In this document: in pieces, positions 3,338-56,542 of the stretch | Position numbering within the stretch: the stretch's first letter is position 1 | How the letters are laid out: each line of letters begins with the position of its first letter | Source of the DNA: a bacterium | Lineage (GTDB): Bacteria > Patescibacteriota > Minisyncoccia > Phycocordibacterales > Phycocordibacteraceae | Direction of reading: 5' to 3' | Assembly: GCA_023269085.1 (NCBI GenBank) | Contig: JAHFML010000003.1 | Location: 52,863-116,862 of the forward strand | Length of the DNA stretch: 64,000 bases | The notes under the pieces: model-generated | Told to the model about the DNA's origin: nothing | The model's database searches: none | The model's input: only the letters and a program-made list of their open reading frames with translations | Translations under genes and position numbers: made by a program

Positions 3338-3790
3338 ATGCAACTCAACACACTAGCTCCGAAGACAAAGAAAGAAAGCCACCCGAAGGTTGGGCGTGGC
3401 GGCAAGCGCGGTAAGACCAGCGGCAAGGGCGGCAAGGGTCAGACCGCGCGCGCCGGGCATCATATCCGCCCGGAGGTACGCGACCGGATCAAGAAACTCC
3501 CCAAGCTCCGCGGCCACGGCAAGAATCGTTCGCGCACCGTCCGCACCAATCGTATCGATGCGGCGGTCGTCAATCTCGCCGCGCTCGAAGCCGCCTTCAA
3601 AGCGGGTGAGGTCGTCTCGCCGGCAGCACTCCTCGCGAAAGGGCTCGTGCGCCGCGCGAAGGGTCGCGCGCCCGAGGTGAAGATCCTCGGCATGGGCACC
3701 TTGACCAAGGCGCTCACGATTCGCGGTTGTGTCCTCTCGGCGACCGCTCTTGCCGCGGTGCTCGCGGTCGGCGGCACCAACAATGATTAA
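3338..3790 (+). CDS. rplO: 50S ribosomal protein L15
   Basis: MQLNTLAPKTKKESHPKVGRGGKRGKTSGKGGKGQ... L15; begins 10 nt after rpsE with no rpmD (L30) in between. Confidence 0.95.
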   Translation: MQLNTLAPKTKKESHPKVGRGGKRGKTSGKGGKGQTARAGHHIRPEVRDRIKKLPKLRGHGKNRSRTVRTNRIDAAVVNLAALEAAFKAGEVVSPAALLAKGLVRRAKGRAPEVKILGMGTLTKALTIRGCVLSATALAAVLAVGGTNND

Positions 3791-5101: not shown

Positions 5102-5665
5102 ATGCAACCACGCACTATTTTTTTTATCGGCAAGCCCGGCTGCGGGAAGGGGACACAGGCGAAATTACTTGCACAAGAGACCGGCTGGCAGATTGTCTCT
5201 GCTGGCGACCAGTTCCGCGCCATCGCGCTCGAGGAGACGCCGGTCGGGCATAAGATCAAGGCGCAGATGGAGGCAGGCGATCTCGCGCCGCACTGGTTCG
5301 CGATGTATCTCTATCTGAAGTCGCTCTTCGCGGCAGACGAGGGCGCGGACATCATCTTCGACGGCTTCAACCGCGAGCTCTCTGAGGCGGTGCTCGTCGT
5401 CGACTCACTCGCGTGGCTCGGGCGCCCGTTCAATATCGTGAACCTTGTCATCTCGGACGAAGAAGTTCTCGCGCGTCTCGCGAAGCGGAAGGAAATAGAG
5501 GGTCGCGCCGATGACAATGTCGTCGAGGAGCGCTTGAAGGAGTTCCATCAGCACACTGATCCTGCGATCGCGATGTTCAGAGATGCGGGCGTCCTCATCG
5601 ACGTGAACGGCGATCAGGGTATCGAAGCTATTTCGGCCGATATCCGTTCGGCACTCGGCGTCTAG
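5102..5665 (+). CDS. adk: Adenylate kinase
   Basis: IFFIGKPGCGKGTQAKLLAQE... P-loop adenylate kinase. Confidence 0.93.
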   Translation: MQPRTIFFIGKPGCGKGTQAKLLAQETGWQIVSAGDQFRAIALEETPVGHKIKAQMEAGDLAPHWFAMYLYLKSLFAADEGADIIFDGFNRELSEAVLVVDSLAWLGRPFNIVNLVISDEEVLARLAKRKEIEGRADDNVVEERLKEFHQHTDPAIAMFRDAGVLIDVNGDQGIEAISADIRSALGV

Positions 5666-17887: not shown

Positions 17888-18604
17888 ATGTTGACCGACT
17901 CTCGCACCATCGCTCAAGCATACGGTCTTGGGCAAAAAGTTTTCTCCGCCGGCGAGGTTGCCGGTATGACGCCAGAGCTTTGGAATGCTCTGGCTCAAGA
18001 CGCGCGATTGTTTGCGCAGCTTCCGGCGATGATCCGCGGCTCTTTGGCGGATGCGTTGGCTGAACAGCGCGAACAGCAACCCAAGTTCTTCACTCACATC
18101 GCGACGACCAACCTTGCCGCGACTGTGGGCAAAAAGACGAGGAAGTGTTTCGTTGGCAGTCGCTATACGTATCGCGACAACGACTTCGACAACTGGCTTC
18201 CCGCCAATCAGCCATCCGCCGATGCCTGCGTTATCACAACGCTTGCTTCTGAGCAGGACTGGACGTTTGCCGAAGCCGCTGCCAAAGTCCTAGGTGTTGG
18301 CGCTGGCACGAACATCATCTTGCTCGGCAAAGCGCTCATCGAGAACGGTCATATCATGACCTTGGCGCAAGCTGAAGAAATGATCGAAGCCAACGAGCAC
18401 GGCGAGAACACCGGTATGCACCGCGATGGTCGGGGCAATTTCTTCTTCGTGGAAACGGAGGACGAAAATAATCCCGTCTCGGTTGGCGGCGTCGGTCGCG
18501 TTGAGCGCGCTTGGGTCGCGTACGTCGGCTGGCTCGTCAGCGGCGATCGCTGGGACGCTGGCGGTCGGCTCCTCGTCCGCAACTTGGACGCTTCGAAACT
18601 CTGA
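17888..18604 (+). CDS. DGR-1 target protein with C-terminal variable region
   Basis: SD AAAGGAGA 7 nt upstream of ATG 17888; C-terminal 36 codons form the VR. Confidence 0.75.
   Translation: MLTDSRTIAQAYGLGQKVFSAGEVAGMTPELWNALAQDARLFAQLPAMIRGSLADALAEQREQQPKFFTHIATTNLAATVGKKTRKCFVGSRYTYRDNDFDNWLPANQPSADACVITTLASEQDWTFAEAAAKVLGVGAGTNIILLGKALIENGHIMTLAQAEEMIEANEHGENTGMHRDGRGNFFFVETEDENNPVSVGGVGRVERAWVAYVGWLVSGDRWDAGGRLLVRNLDASKL
18475..18583 (+). repeat. DGR-1 variable repeat (VR)
   Basis: 109 nt aligning to the TR at 18863..18971; ~20 mismatches, 19 at TR adenines. Confidence 0.9.
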
Positions 18605-18862
18605 CACTTGGTCTCTTTCGAGTGTCCTCTAATTACTCCTCTCACGTATTACGCGTGCGAGGAGTATACTTTTGTCTGAACACGCTGGCATCTTCGGTTC
18701 CCAAACTTGAGGTGGCGAGGTTCCGGGTAAGTTCACCCGAAAAAAGAAATATAAGTTGGTGTGTCGCGCTGGTGGGCTCACGGCCCCGAATAAGATACAG
18801 CTCAGAGAGCATTCGATGGGTGGTAACCTTCGCTGGTGGTAAGGATGGTGCGACACACAAAG

Positions 18863-18971
18863 CGTCTCGGTTGGCAACGTCAATCGCGATGAGCGCGATT
18901 GGAACGCGAACGTCAACCGGCTCGACAACGACAATCGCTGGAACGCTGACAATCGGCTCCTCGTCCGCAAC
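18863..18971 (+). repeat. DGR-1 template repeat (TR)
   Basis: Intergenic; rich in AAC/AAT/GAC codons in the VR frame; all but one difference from the VR are at adenines. Confidence 0.9.
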
Positions 18972-18976
18972 AGATC

Positions 18977-19336
18977 TTACTTTCTCTCGCTTTCTGCGGG
19001 AGTTTTCTTTTCAAGATATGAACGCCATGCGACCAGCATTTTGCTTGCATCAACAAGTAGTCCGCTTATACGTACATGTTGAGCGTTCGTAATCGCATTA
19101 CTCTCCCACCCGACAAGTAGAAGGAATTTCGCCACATCGAGTCGGGCAATTGAGATGTTGAGCGCAGAAATCTTTTGCGCGGACGGAAGATATGCCGCAG
19201 AAAAGGCAGATTCAAGCGTGTCGAGAAGAGCCGTGTCAATTCTCGTACCGATAGTCTGTCGCTTCGTTTTGGCAACGTGAGGGAGTGCTGCTTGCCAAGC
19301 GAGATACGCCTCCTTCAATTTCGATACTACGGGCAC
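18977..19336 (-). CDS. avd: Accessory variability determinant (Avd) homologue, DGR-1
   Basis: 119-aa four-helix-bundle-type protein; resembles Bordetella phage Avd; homologous to the 55141..55509 ORF; GTG start. Confidence 0.7.
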   Translation of the reverse strand: MPVVSKLKEAYLAWQAALPHVAKTKRQTIGTRIDTALLDTLESAFSAAYLPSAQKISALNISIARLDVAKFLLLVGWESNAITNAQHVRISGLLVDASKMLVAWRSYLEKKTPAESERK

Positions 19337-19361
19337 GAGCTTTTCTTGTTGCGGAAACGTC

Positions 19362-19373
19362 GGGGGGGGGGGG
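19362..19373 (+). repeat. Homopolymeric G12 tract in the 50-nt divergent avd/RT intergenic region
   Basis: cgtcGGGGGGGGGGGGtacgttcagaagaATG; lies 14 nt upstream of the RT ATG and 26 nt upstream of the avd start. Confidence 0.95.
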
Positions 19374-19386
19374 TACGTTCAGAAGA

Positions 19387-20409
19387 ATGGATAGAATAAA
19401 TATCACTCATTCCTTCGACAATATCACCTTGGTAGATAATTTGCTCGACGCGTGGAAAGAATTCTTGCGCGGCAAACAGAAGAGGAAAGACGTGCAAGTA
19501 TTCGGATATAATCTAATTGAAAATATAAAAAGCATCCACGCGGACCTCATTTCCGGCATCTACCAGCACGGCCAGTACGAGCACTTCAAAATCAACGACC
19601 CAAAGCCCCGCGACATCCACAAAGCGAGCGTGCGCGACCGGCTCGTGCACCATGCCATTTATCGCATTCTCTACCCATTCTTCGATCGCACTTTTATCAG
19701 CGACTCCTACTCCTGCCGCAATGGGAAGGGGACGCACAAAGCCATGAATCGCTTTAGAGCCTTTGCGCGCAAAGTATCGAAGAATGACACGCGCACTGCT
19801 TGGGTCTTGAAGTGCGACATACGCAAGTTCTTCGCATCGATTGATCAGCCAACGCTCCTCGCCCTCTTGAGAGAACGCATTTCAGACGAACGCACCCTGC
19901 TACTCCTGCAACGAGTTATCGAGAGCTTCTCAAGTACAGCGAGAGGGAAAGGCCTCCCGCTCGGCAATCTCACCTCACAGCTCCTCGTGAACATCTACAT
20001 GAACGAGTCCGATCAATTCGTGAAGCATATACTCAAAGCGAAATACTATATCCGCTATGCCGATGACTTCGTATTCATCTCCCACGATCGCAGAGAACTC
20101 GAGGCGCTTCTGCCTCGTGTCGATGCCTTTTTGCGCGACCGGCTCAAGCTCGAATTGCACCCGAATAAAGTCTCAATCGCCACGCTCGCTTCGGGTATCG
20201 ACTTCTTGGGCTGGGTGCATTTCTCTGACCATCGCGTCTTGCGAGGCGCGACGAAGCGACGGATGTTGCGGAGGATTGAAGAGACGAGCGACAAGCCGGA
20301 GGTGATGAGCTCGTATCTGGGGATGCTAGAGCATGGAAATGGGTACAAGTTGCGAGAAGAGATTATGTATTTGCATACACTCACCGAGGCGCGTACCATG
20401 GTGGCATGA
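19387..20409 (+). CDS. DGR-type reverse transcriptase, DGR-1
   Basis: RT motifs including YADD and the DGR-characteristic LGNLTSQ (motif 4, in place of the group II QGxxxSP); start could alternatively be the upstream in-frame ATG at 19285. Confidence 0.9.
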   Translation: MDRINITHSFDNITLVDNLLDAWKEFLRGKQKRKDVQVFGYNLIENIKSIHADLISGIYQHGQYEHFKINDPKPRDIHKASVRDRLVHHAIYRILYPFFDRTFISDSYSCRNGKGTHKAMNRFRAFARKVSKNDTRTAWVLKCDIRKFFASIDQPTLLALLRERISDERTLLLLQRVIESFSSTARGKGLPLGNLTSQLLVNIYMNESDQFVKHILKAKYYIRYADDFVFISHDRRELEALLPRVDAFLRDRLKLELHPNKVSIATLASGIDFLGWVHFSDHRVLRGATKRRMLRRIEETSDKPEVMSSYLGMLEHGNGYKLREEIMYLHTLTEARTMVA

Positions 20410-40406: not shown

Positions 40407-40419
40407 TCGGGGGGGGGGG
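40407..40419 (+). repeat. Homopolymeric G13 tract 40 nt upstream of the surface-protein gene
   Basis: cctcGGGGGGGGGGGGGtacgctacag; flanks closely resemble the G12 tract region of DGR-1 (cgtcG12tacgttcag). Confidence 0.95.
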
Positions 40420-40459
40420 GGTACGCTACAGGTATATCCACCGCGCATAACCCATACCC

Positions 40460-41374
40460 ATGAAAGAACTAACTCGTTCAACGCTCGTCGCCATCGTCGC
40501 CTCATCGCTCTCCCTCCTCGCCTTCTACGCGGTGAGCGCTGGCGCACAATCAGCCTGGACTCCAGCTCCAGCTAACGCTCCCTCAGGCAACGTGGCAGGC
40601 CCCCTCACCACGGGCGCAACCGGTCAGAGCAAAGCCGGTAACCTCATGCTCAACACCGACGGCACCCTCGCCAACGGCCTCATCGTCGCGAATGGGAATG
40701 TGGGTATTGGGACGGTGGCGCCATACTTGCCACTCGTCGTTTATAGTTCGTCAGCCAATGGTTCTGCTGTAGCGCTTGACAGACCGGCTGGCTTGGCTGG
40801 GATGTATCAGGTAAGAACAAACGGATCTCCTCGATGGGTTTTTGGTGCAGACCAAACAACAGAGAGTGGCTCGAATTCCGGATCAAACTTTCGAATTATC
40901 GGGTATAATGATGACGGTCTTGGATTAAATAACGCATTAACAATAAATAGATCCTCCGGCAACGTCGGTATTGGAACGACGAATCCGAACGTCTCGAAGG
41001 GGGCTGGCGGGTATGTCGACGCCAAAGACGTCTATCTCCGTGACGCCGGGAAGTGGGCGAGTGAGGTTGGTGGGAGTGGGAGTATCGTAGCAGGATGCGC
41101 AAAAAATAGGAGAGCAGTTGATTTTTGCGGAAGAGTTAACAACAACCCAGCAGGACTAATCGCTGATGTTTGTTGGGGAGGCGCATCATTTACTACTATT
41201 GAAATAGGCACCCTCGGAGCGGATTGGGGAGCGAGTACCGTTTATACGACAAAGACATTTTCTTGCCCGAGCGGATCCACTGTTCGACTCGTTGGGACTA
41301 TGGGCGAAGGCTGTGGGAGTAACTCATATTCGTCGTCTAGCGTATCACTGGATACCTTTTTCTGTATCAAATAA
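40460..41374 (+). CDS. Secreted Gly/Asn-rich repeat protein (fibre/surface-protein-like)
   Basis: Signal peptide (LVAIVASSLSLLAFYAVSAGAQS); repeated NGNVGIGT / SGNVGIGTTNP motifs; C-terminal Cys-rich region. Confidence 0.6.
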   Translation: MKELTRSTLVAIVASSLSLLAFYAVSAGAQSAWTPAPANAPSGNVAGPLTTGATGQSKAGNLMLNTDGTLANGLIVANGNVGIGTVAPYLPLVVYSSSANGSAVALDRPAGLAGMYQVRTNGSPRWVFGADQTTESGSNSGSNFRIIGYNDDGLGLNNALTINRSSGNVGIGTTNPNVSKGAGGYVDAKDVYLRDAGKWASEVGGSGSIVAGCAKNRRAVDFCGRVNNNPAGLIADVCWGGASFTTIEIGTLGADWGASTVYTTKTFSCPSGSTVRLVGTMGEGCGSNSYSSSSVSLDTFFCIK

Positions 41375-51913: not shown

Positions 51914-53956
<2,043 letters not shown>

Positions 53957-54120: not shown

Positions 54121-54714
54121 ATGAGCGCACAACAGAAGCAAATCACGAAACTAGTGGCCGCTCTGGTCGAGTTTTCTGACCAGTTCGGCCAGATGTCGAC
54201 CGAGGATTGCCAATGGGCAATCCAAAACACGAAAGCGGCAATCGGCCTCTTCGTAGAGGCGGTGAGGAATCGCCCGATAGCAGCTCTGGTCGGGTTGCCA
54301 GAAGGCACGGTCATCCGTCGCGTGAAGGTCGACCGCTCGCATTCTCCGCAGAAAATGGTGAACGCGACCGGCCGTAGGCAGTACATCGACAAGGACATCC
54401 TCGCGACGATGCCTTTGGGCGAAGGCGACGAGGTGGATGTGTACTTCGTACCGACCAAGCGCTTCGTTTTGGCAAGTGAGGTCTCGGCGTTTCTCGCGCA
54501 GTATGGTCTCGTTCCCGACCCGCGCGCGCAAACGGCGGTGAACGAAGCCGATCCGACCTTCGCCGACGACCATCCGAACGGAACGCAATGGAGCGATTTT
54601 TGCTACCTGACGTTCTACCGCTGGTATGACGAGCGGGACGTGTACTGCAACCGCGACGACCGCGTCTGGCGCGGCTATTGGTTCCTCTCGGGTGTCCCGA
54701 CTCCCCGCAAGTAA
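54121..54714 (+). CDS. DGR-2 target protein with C-terminal variable region
   Basis: SD AAGGAGA 5 nt upstream; VR occupies the last ~36 codons (…CYLTFYRWYDERDVYCNRDDRVWRGYWFLSGVPTPRK). Confidence 0.75.
   Translation: MSAQQKQITKLVAALVEFSDQFGQMSTEDCQWAIQNTKAAIGLFVEAVRNRPIAALVGLPEGTVIRRVKVDRSHSPQKMVNATGRRQYIDKDILATMPLGEGDEVDVYFVPTKRFVLASEVSAFLAQYGLVPDPRAQTAVNEADPTFADDHPNGTQWSDFCYLTFYRWYDERDVYCNRDDRVWRGYWFLSGVPTPRK
54601..54707 (+). repeat. DGR-2 variable repeat (VR)
   Basis: 107 nt aligning to 55025..55131; ~14 mismatches, all at TR adenines. Confidence 0.9.
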
Positions 54715-54763
54715 GTCCTCGGGTCTTTGAGTATAAGAACTCTTTAGACCCTTAACCCTTTGT

Positions 54764-54792
54764 GCGCCGCTTTCCCAAGCGGCGCATTTTGT
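54764..54792 (+). terminator. Rho-independent terminator after DGR-2 target
   Basis: gcgccgc tttcccaa gcggcgc + attttgt. Confidence 0.7.
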
Positions 54793-55024
54793 ATATGATG
54801 CAAATGGTAGTAGGCGAATACGGAAGCGATTACGGTTTCTTCCTGCCGAATCCAGTATCCGTACGTTGAGAACGTGTGCGATTACGGTTGCATATGGAGG
54901 ATGTACGCAGAAACTTCAAAAAATGAAGATACTTGGTGTGAAGTGCTGGCGCATTACCGATGCCGAATACGATTCAACCTTGAGAATACTCGATGGGTGG
55001 TGGCACAGATGGCGCTCCATACAT

Positions 55025-55131
55025 TGCTACCTGACGTTCAACCGCTGGAATGACGAGCGGAACGTGAACTGCAACCGCAACGACAACGACTGGAACGACA
55101 ATTGGTTCCTCTCGGGTGTCCCGACTCCCCG
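55025..55131 (+). repeat. DGR-2 template repeat (TR)
   Basis: AAC-rich in VR frame (…NRWNDERNVNCNRNDNDWNDNWF…); intergenic. Confidence 0.9.
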
Positions 55132-55140
55132 TAACTCTCT

Positions 55141-55509
55141 TCATTTCTCGCCCGAACCTCTATGTTCGGGCGAGTTTTGTTTAACGAGCTGCCCATTCCA
55201 TCCACCAAGCATTCTCCCGACCTCCTCAAGTGGCATCGAGAGAGCGATGTATTTCTTCGTATCGAGCGATTTGGTCTCCCAGAGGATGAGTAAGAATATT
55301 TTTAGCGTATCGAGTTTACGAATAGCGAGACGCACCCACGGCTGTTTCTCAGTTTTTGAGAGAAAGCTTGCACTTGCGACTGCTTCAATCAACGCAACGA
55401 ATTCCGCGTCAACTGTTCCACCGAGCGTGTGCCGATGGGTCTTCGGTATGGTTTGATAAAATCCATACCATATAATATACGCATGCTTAATACGCTCGAG
55501 CACCGGCAA
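55141..55509 (-). CDS. avd: Avd homologue, DGR-2
   Basis: 122 aa; ...LSMPLEEVGRMLGGWNGQLVKQ resembles the Avd C-terminus; TTG start. Confidence 0.7.
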   Translation of the reverse strand: MPVLERIKHAYIIWYGFYQTIPKTHRHTLGGTVDAEFVALIEAVASASFLSKTEKQPWVRLAIRKLDTLKIFLLILWETKSLDTKKYIALSMPLEEVGRMLGGWNGQLVKQNSPEHRGSGEK

Positions 55510-55516
55510 GAGCCTC

Positions 55517-55526
55517 GGGGGGGGGG
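55517..55526 (+). repeat. Homopolymeric G10 tract between divergent avd-2 and RT-2
   Basis: agcctcGGGGGGGGGGagcttcgaag; 8 nt upstream of avd-2 start. Confidence 0.95.
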
Positions 55527-55606
55527 AGCTTCGAAGAATCGAATTCGTTCATACCTATGAGCATATCATCTCGATCGAGAACCTTCTCGACGCGTGGCGA
55601 GAATTC

Positions 55607-56542
55607 GTGAGAGGGAAGAAGAAGCGTGCGGATGTGCAAGAGTTCGAGAGAGACTTGATGCAAAATGTCATATCGTTGCATCGTTATCTCGTGTCTGGCG
55701 CGTACCAGCACGGCCAGTACGAGCGCTTCAAAATCAACGACCCCAAGCCTCGCGACATCCACAAAGCGAGCGTGCGCGATCGGCTCGTGCACCATGCCAT
55801 CTATCGCATTCTATATCCATTCTTCGACCGCACTTTCATCAGCGACTCCTATTCCTGCCGCAATGGGAAGGGAACGCACAGAGCCATGAATCGCTTTAGA
55901 GCCTTTGCGCGCAAAGTATCGAAGAATGACACGCGCACTGCTTGGGTCTTGAAGTGCGACATACGCAAGTTCTTCGCCTCGATTGATCAGTCAACGCTCC
56001 TCGTCATCTTGAAGAGACGCATAACAGACGAACGCACGCTGACACTTCTGCAACGAGTTATCGAGAGCTTCCGCACACCCTGTGCAACACCTGGTGTTGC
56101 ACAAAAAGGCCTCCCGCTTGGCAACCTTACCTCACAACTCCTCGTGAACATCTACATGAACGAGTTCGATCAATTCGTGAAGCACGCGCTCAAAGCAAGA
56201 TACTATCTCCGCTATGCCGATGACTTCGTATTCATCTCTCACGACCGCAGAGAGCTCGAGGCGCTTCTGCCTCGGGTCGATGCCTTTTTGCGCGACCGGC
56301 TCAAGCTCGAACTGCATCCAGACAAAGTCTCAATCGCCACGCTCGCTTCGGGTATCGACTTCTTGGGCTGGGTGCATTTCTCTGACCATCGCGTTGTGCG
56401 AGGCGCGACGAAGCGGCGGATGTTGCGGAGGATTGAAGAGATGGGTGGCAAGCCAGAGGTGGTGAGCTCGTATCTGGGGATGCTCTCGCACGGGAACGCG
56501 TACCGGCTTGTTGCTCATATTTCAGAACAGAAGGAAAAGTGA
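55607..56542 (+). CDS. DGR-type reverse transcriptase, DGR-2
   Basis: ~85% identical to RT-1; YADD and LGNLTSQ motifs; no ATG equivalent to RT-1 Met1 (ATG->ATC), so the true N-terminus is unclear. Confidence 0.85.
   Translation: MRGKKKRADVQEFERDLMQNVISLHRYLVSGAYQHGQYERFKINDPKPRDIHKASVRDRLVHHAIYRILYPFFDRTFISDSYSCRNGKGTHRAMNRFRAFARKVSKNDTRTAWVLKCDIRKFFASIDQSTLLVILKRRITDERTLTLLQRVIESFRTPCATPGVAQKGLPLGNLTSQLLVNIYMNEFDQFVKHALKARYYLRYADDFVFISHDRRELEALLPRVDAFLRDRLKLELHPDKVSIATLASGIDFLGWVHFSDHRVVRGATKRRMLRRIEEMGGKPEVVSSYLGMLSHGNAYRLVAHISEQKEK

Follow-up and report, generated by a model that had tools for sequence, protein, structure and literature searches.

A slippery repeat where avd and the reverse transcriptase overlap as a probable switch of diversity-generating retroelements in uncultured Patescibacteria

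Simple-sequence contingency loci, such as the poly-G/C and tetranucleotide repeats in the 5' coding regions of Campylobacter, Neisseria and Haemophilus genes, typically carry an uninterrupted repeat of about 8-13 units just after the start codon (see also PMC8355987 and PMC5084427). Their unit length is not a multiple of 3, repeat number differs between near-identical strains, and consensus genomes show a mixture of in-frame and out-of-frame states. In a second kind of system, including the Haemophilus influenzae hifA/hifB (TA)n repeat and the promoter-spacer tracts of Neisseria porA/opc and Bordetella fim (PMC1891110), a single repeat between divergently transcribed genes, or between the -35 and -10 boxes, sets the expression of both genes or of the downstream gene. 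Diversity-generating retroelements (DGRs) are especially common in Patescibacteria (CPR) and DPANN lineages. In the canonical DGR of Bordetella phage BPP-1, avd, TR and brt appear to be co-directional. Here we describe DGRs of uncultured Patescibacteria with an RT of the DGR class, an Avd four-helix bundle, a TR/VR pair with adenine-specific changes and a variable C-terminal domain in the target, as in BPP-1, but in which avd is inverted and convergent with TR, its 5' end overlaps the 5' end of RT, and a repeat resembling those of contingency loci sits in that overlap. Among the papers whose text we could search, we found no report of a repeat at the avd-RT junction, and the text of the large DGR survey (PMC5758913) contained no mention of a homopolymer, a G-rich element, or an opposite-strand or reverse orientation.

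The 64-kb stretch of DNA analysed here (the window) contains two such elements. In DGR-2, a G10 run occupies 55517-55526 on the plus strand, flanked by C and A, between avd-2 (55141-55509, minus strand) and RT-2 (55527-56542, plus strand). In DGR-1, a G12 run occupies 19362-19373 between avd-1 (18977-19336, minus strand) and RT-1 (19387-20409, plus strand). Both are real DGRs. The RTs matched RVT_1 (E-values of 3.8e-25 for RT-2 and 3.1e-24 for RT-1), and the Avd proteins matched the bAvd-like family PF22296 (E-value of 1e-9 for Avd-2, at 39.3 bits just under the 40-bit cut-off, and 8e-4 for Avd-1). Avd had 2129 database homologues. TR-1 and VR-1 differ at 20 positions, of which 19 are TR adenines. 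TR-2 (55024-55134, plus strand) and VR-2 (54600-54710, plus strand), which lies at the 3' end of the target gene at 54121-54714, differ at 13 positions, of which 12 are TR adenines. The tract and VR-2 are only about 0.9 kb apart.

The only other G or C run longer than 6 in the window is a G13 run at 40409-40421, which is not part of a DGR. A 10-G word was expected 0.04 times in dinucleotide-preserving shuffles and was found 8 times, in these three tracts. The G13 run lies 88 nt downstream of rplB and 38 nt upstream of a 304-aa ORF with a signal-peptide-like N-terminus (40460-41374), is followed directly by a -10-like TACGCT, and is not in the frame of that ORF. In another assembly (a contig of ERZ27297709), the distance between rplB and this ORF is exactly 1 nt shorter while every other spacing compared matches the window, although we cannot say that the tract is the site of this difference.

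A sequence-only reading had proposed that the G10 tract is functional, because a homopolymer lies at the same position in both DGRs, and had noted that a minus-strand ATG frame would join Avd-2 if the tract were one nucleotide shorter. We confirmed the latter. The ATG at 55552-55550 opens a frame reading MNEFDSSKLPPPEALAGARAY* that ends at 55487, and removing one G joins it to Avd-2 in a complete 136-aa ORF. In DGR-1, the equivalent ATG frame (19410-19408) needs +1 or -2 nt, so the two tracts are out of phase in different directions, as that reading had stated. Its description of the two junctions as paralogous requires correction, as Avd-1 and Avd-2 are 30% identical while the RTs are 81% identical, and the junctions have two different architectures (see below).

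We next determined how widespread the tract is by collecting 80 RT relatives from GTDB genomes, all Patescibacteria, and 80 from metagenomes. In total, 583 relatives were found in Patescibacteria genomes, and the metagenome scan found no relative closer than 73% RT identity. Almost all of the 160 loci have avd divergent from RT with only about 30 nt between the annotated starts, and about 150 carry a repeat at this junction. About 85% have a G-run of 6-14 on the RT sense strand, the commonest lengths being 10 (39 loci), 9 (34), 11 (19) and 8 (17). In 820 kb of these loci, 127 G/C runs of at least 8 lie at the avd-RT junction and 4 lie elsewhere. Loci without a G-run have another simple repeat at the same place, namely (GT)n in seven loci, (CTGG)n in three, and (GGCGGCT)n and (CT)n in one each. 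So what is conserved is the presence of a repeat rather than its sequence, and the unit lengths of 1, 2, 4 and 7 are never multiples of three.

Repeat number also changes faster than point substitutions accumulate. Of nine pairs of loci that are at least 99.3% identical and come from independent assemblies, four differ in repeat number. Loci L103 and L104 (related loci are numbered with the prefix L) have G11 and G10 with no other difference in 1.3 kb, and L129 and L135 have G11 and G10 with one mismatch in 4.1 kb. L019 and L101 have (GT)9 and (GT)8, and L052 and L100 have (GT)10 and (GT)7. L135 has a full avd ORF, whereas that of L129 is truncated at 50 aa. The other five pairs have equal lengths. 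These include L081, a strain 99.6% identical to the DGR-2 of the window from another sample, which also has G10 and was the only usable same-strain contig recovered with gatA, VKOR, rplB, RT-1 and the 304-aa ORF. The three (CTGG)n loci occupy three different phases, and 11 of 13 clusters at 75% or more RT nucleotide identity contain more than one tract length.

Homopolymer lengths in assemblies can be wrong. Many contigs end at the tract, and three begin there with artificial C41-52 runs. Assemblies of these DGRs tend to break at this point, which will hide the avd-RT linkage in surveys. Still, an artefactual tract or a neutral mutational hotspot is very unlikely, as an independent assembly gave the same G10, uninterrupted runs persist across more than 100 lineages that share less than 75% nucleotide identity, the tract is specific to this position, and neighbouring codons show signals of selection.

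To investigate where avd starts, we first examined its annotated start codon. The avd-2 TTG lies at 55509-55507, 7 nt from the tract. Across 142 loci, the codon at this position is TTG 51, CTG 18, TTA 17, CTA 9, GTG 8, CTC 7 and CTT 4 times, which indicates a conserved leucine rather than a dedicated start and places the start of the ORF on the far side of the tract. TTG is nevertheless three-fold enriched among the Leu codons at this position (48% against 16% elsewhere in avd), so a short Avd may also be made from it. Stop-codon avoidance between the tract and the Leu codon was uninformative, because all three frames are almost stop-free there.

On the far side of the tract, three independent nucleotide-level signals appear on the strand antisense to RT. 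First, the conserved His of the RT N-terminus (F-x-H-x-Y) is encoded by CAT in 104 of 105 loci, against 52% of His codons elsewhere in the same genes, which gives an antisense ATG. Second, the antisense frame from this ATG to the tract is stop-free in 105 of 105 loci, where 74 are expected from the 3.8% frequency of TTA/CTA/TCA codons elsewhere. The result holds in 84 of 85 clusters at 75% nucleotide identity. Third, the codon before the Ile of the I-I-S motif ends in T in 92 of 92 two-fold-degenerate cases, against a 56% background, creating a minus-strand TAnnnT hexamer exactly 7 nt upstream of the ATG in 93 of 105 loci. In avd-2 this hexamer is TATGCT (55560-55565, minus strand), and we propose that the true 5' end of avd-2 spans 55487-55552 on the minus strand. 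In avd-1 the corresponding layout is TATTGT-N7-ATG (19408-19423, minus strand), with the ATG antisense to the RT-1 His codon, and the frame is out at G12 and in at G13 or G10. In agreement with this, 81 of the 120 best Avd homologues in the protein database were called with an M...PP(P)... N-terminal extension, the closest being MNELDSSKRPPPPALLPVLERIKHAY.

A -10 box 7 nt before an ATG is the signature of a leaderless mRNA. Long ORFs in the window have almost no Shine-Dalgarno motifs upstream, and many first genes have TATAAT-like boxes 5-7 nt before the ATG, for example ligA at 51932 and the genes at 1847, 14345, 15070, 41521 and 47827. This organism therefore appears to rely largely on leaderless mRNAs, although transcription starts were inferred from sequence only. 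The suggestion of the sequence-only reading that the tract occupies a Shine-Dalgarno position is thus irrelevant, as the tract is poly-C on the avd strand. A G-run 11-13 nt before the RT-1 start position could in principle pair with the anti-SD sequence, but a ribosome-binding or RNA-structure role is largely refuted by the scarcity of such motifs and by the (GT)n, (CT)n and (CTGG)n replacements in relatives. The four putative 5' mRNA regions were predicted to fold no more stably than shuffles (z between -0.9 and +1.7), and an Rfam search gave only two unrelated sub-threshold hits. A sub-threshold Rfam hit (ncS54, 30 bits against a 43-bit gathering score) covers 54713-54793, directly after the target gene's stop, where a GC-rich hairpin followed by T's looks like an ordinary terminator between VR-2 and TR-2.

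We next looked at the start of RT, which distinguished two types of junction. In type A, which includes DGR-1, a TAnnnT box directly follows the run in 40 of 68 RTs that have their own ATG, against a 1.4% background, and in 25 loci the layout is exactly G(n)|TAnnnT|N7|ATG. In DGR-1, TACGTT-N7-ATG (19374-19389) immediately follows the tract. In the DGR-1-like subgroup, a TTGCxx box lies 7-8 nt before the run, which thus forms most of a promoter spacer of 16-19 nt, and the two loci with a 17-nt spacer (L104 and L105) are also the two with avd in frame. In DGR-1 itself, the G12 run between the -35-like TTGCGG (19349-19354) and the -10-like TACGTT (19374-19379) gives a 19-nt spacer and an out-of-frame avd, whereas G10 would give 17 nt and an in-frame avd.

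Type B comprises 44 loci, including DGR-2. Their RTs have no ATG, GTG or TTG between the run and the conserved N-terminus, and only one has a -10 box after the run. In RT-2 the frame is open through the tract and the first such codon is the GTG at 55607, which would remove the conserved N-terminus (IISIENLLDAWREF). The ATC at 55538 aligned with the conserved Ile at M+3 of other RTs rather than with their Met. Of the 44 type B loci, 31 have an ATG upstream of the run in the frame that is in register with the avd codons, compared with 15 of 68 type A loci, and at least 10 show TAGAAT-N7-ATG there. For about a quarter of the start-less RTs no upstream ATG was found. In DGR-2, TATAAT (55471-55476) lies 6 nt upstream of an ATG at 55483, the proposed true start of RT-2, which the sequence-only reading had missed. 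The frame (55483-55560) begins MLNTLEHRQEPRGGG... and at G10 reads MLNTLEHRQEPRGGGASKNRIRSYL*. Because the avd and RT frames are reverse complements in codon register, the same tract length puts both in frame, and an in-silico G9 yields a complete 352-aa RT-2 and the 136-aa Avd-2. Peptides expected from the long forms include MNEFDSSKLPPPR... and MLNTLEHRQEPRGGELR... L163, whose Avd is 89% identical to Avd-2, is in frame for both long forms, with a run interrupted as G2-T-G8.

These results are best explained by a hypermutable repeat that acts, through slipped-strand mispairing during replication, as a frame switch for avd in all junction types, as a frame switch for RT in type B and as a promoter-spacer setting for RT in type A. 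In this model, which we favour with reasonable though not strong confidence, avd is transcribed as a leaderless mRNA from an ATG about 8 codons into RT on the opposite strand, and the ORF runs about 10 codons, crosses the repeat as poly-proline and continues into the Avd four-helix bundle. In type B, RT would cross the same repeat as poly-glycine. Both DGRs of the window would then be seen in an out-of-frame state, DGR-2 being one nucleotide too long and DGR-1 one too short. Translation of the long forms, reversible switching within populations and its effect on DGR activity are inferred rather than observed. In contrast to the contingency loci named above, the genes concerned here are those of a targeted-mutagenesis retroelement rather than a surface or restriction-modification gene, and one repeat lies in two ORFs at once, on opposite strands and in register, an arrangement for which we know of no precedent.

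The in-frame phase was not enriched. Phases 0, 1 and 2 count 39, 66 and 37. Only 26% of loci (37/142) are in frame and the phase that is one nucleotide too long is the commonest (66/142). DGR-2 of the window and loci L081, L004, L164 and L165, all close relatives, share this phase, and both DGRs of the window are out of frame even though their VRs show adenine mutagenesis. This may point to slippage by RNA polymerase or to a +1 shift of ribosomes (tRNA-Pro on CCC-C or tRNA-Gly on GGG-G) on a fairly stable tract, giving constitutively low Avd and RT levels. Runs of C and G are probably classical +1 frameshift sites, and genes that are out of frame in the DNA are probably expressed through slippage in Thermus dnaX, IS element transposases and prfB. 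Those sites have a fixed length and sequence, however, whereas here length varies among strains and repeat type among lineages. We consider this alternative unlikely, as the di-, tetra- and heptanucleotide repeats in about 10% of loci are substrates for DNA rather than ribosome slippage, all three phases are well populated, repeat number differs between near-identical strains, and L163 is fixed in frame with an interrupted tract. A leaky OFF state, with a short Avd made from the TTG, also remains possible.

A purely transcriptional role, as in porA, opc, fim or hif, fits type A and the non-DGR tracts. Besides the G13 run at 40409, locus L072 carries G10-TATAAT-N6-ATG (3404-3413) in front of a secreted repeat protein just after the RT gene, and G10-TGATAT-N6-ATG (5253-5262) in front of a second Avd-like gene, which suggests a general design of a G-run plus -10 box for switchable leaderless genes in these bacteria. 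As a sole explanation, such a role is doubtful. It does not explain type B, the CAT and wobble-T selection, the stop-free antisense frame, the non-start Leu codons at the avd start or repeat units that are never multiples of 3, and the 40-nt (CTGG)n and (GGCGGCT)n arrays cannot fit inside a 17-nt spacer.

It is somewhat more likely than not that this design, in which one repeat switches both avd and RT and hence the whole targeted-hypermutation machinery, is standard in a large clade of Patescibacteria DGRs. DGR activity would then be a heritable, stochastic subpopulation trait, with mutagenesis running only in a minority of cells at any time as bet-hedging layered on targeted hypermutation, and whether a DGR is active could be read from the tract length in metagenomic reads. 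Annotation pipelines would then start avd and RT at wrong or truncated positions in most of these genomes. Long spurious plus-strand ORFs at 54866-55456 and 18511-19092 run through TR and the antisense of avd, and gene callers report them (177-183 aa in the public records) in place of avd, which is not called at all in those records.

Further variation was found among the junctions. A subgroup of seven RTs lacks the F-x-H-x-Y motif, and their only ATG after the run is out of frame with RT. On the other strand, avd forms starting MSNPPP... or MISSY...PPP... occur in the database, representing a third junction variant. In L081, which is otherwise 99.6% identical over 7.5 kb, the sequence upstream of TR-2 (positions 1-331, compared with window 54475-54805) is unrelated to the window's target-gene 3' end and VR-2, so that the target region is rearranged or replaced, or the contig is chimeric at its end. 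Lastly, RT-1 (19387-20409) and RT-2 (55538-56542) share long identical stretches despite their divergent Avd proteins and different junction types. The two DGRs look mosaic, through either gene conversion of the RT body or exchange of the avd/junction module.
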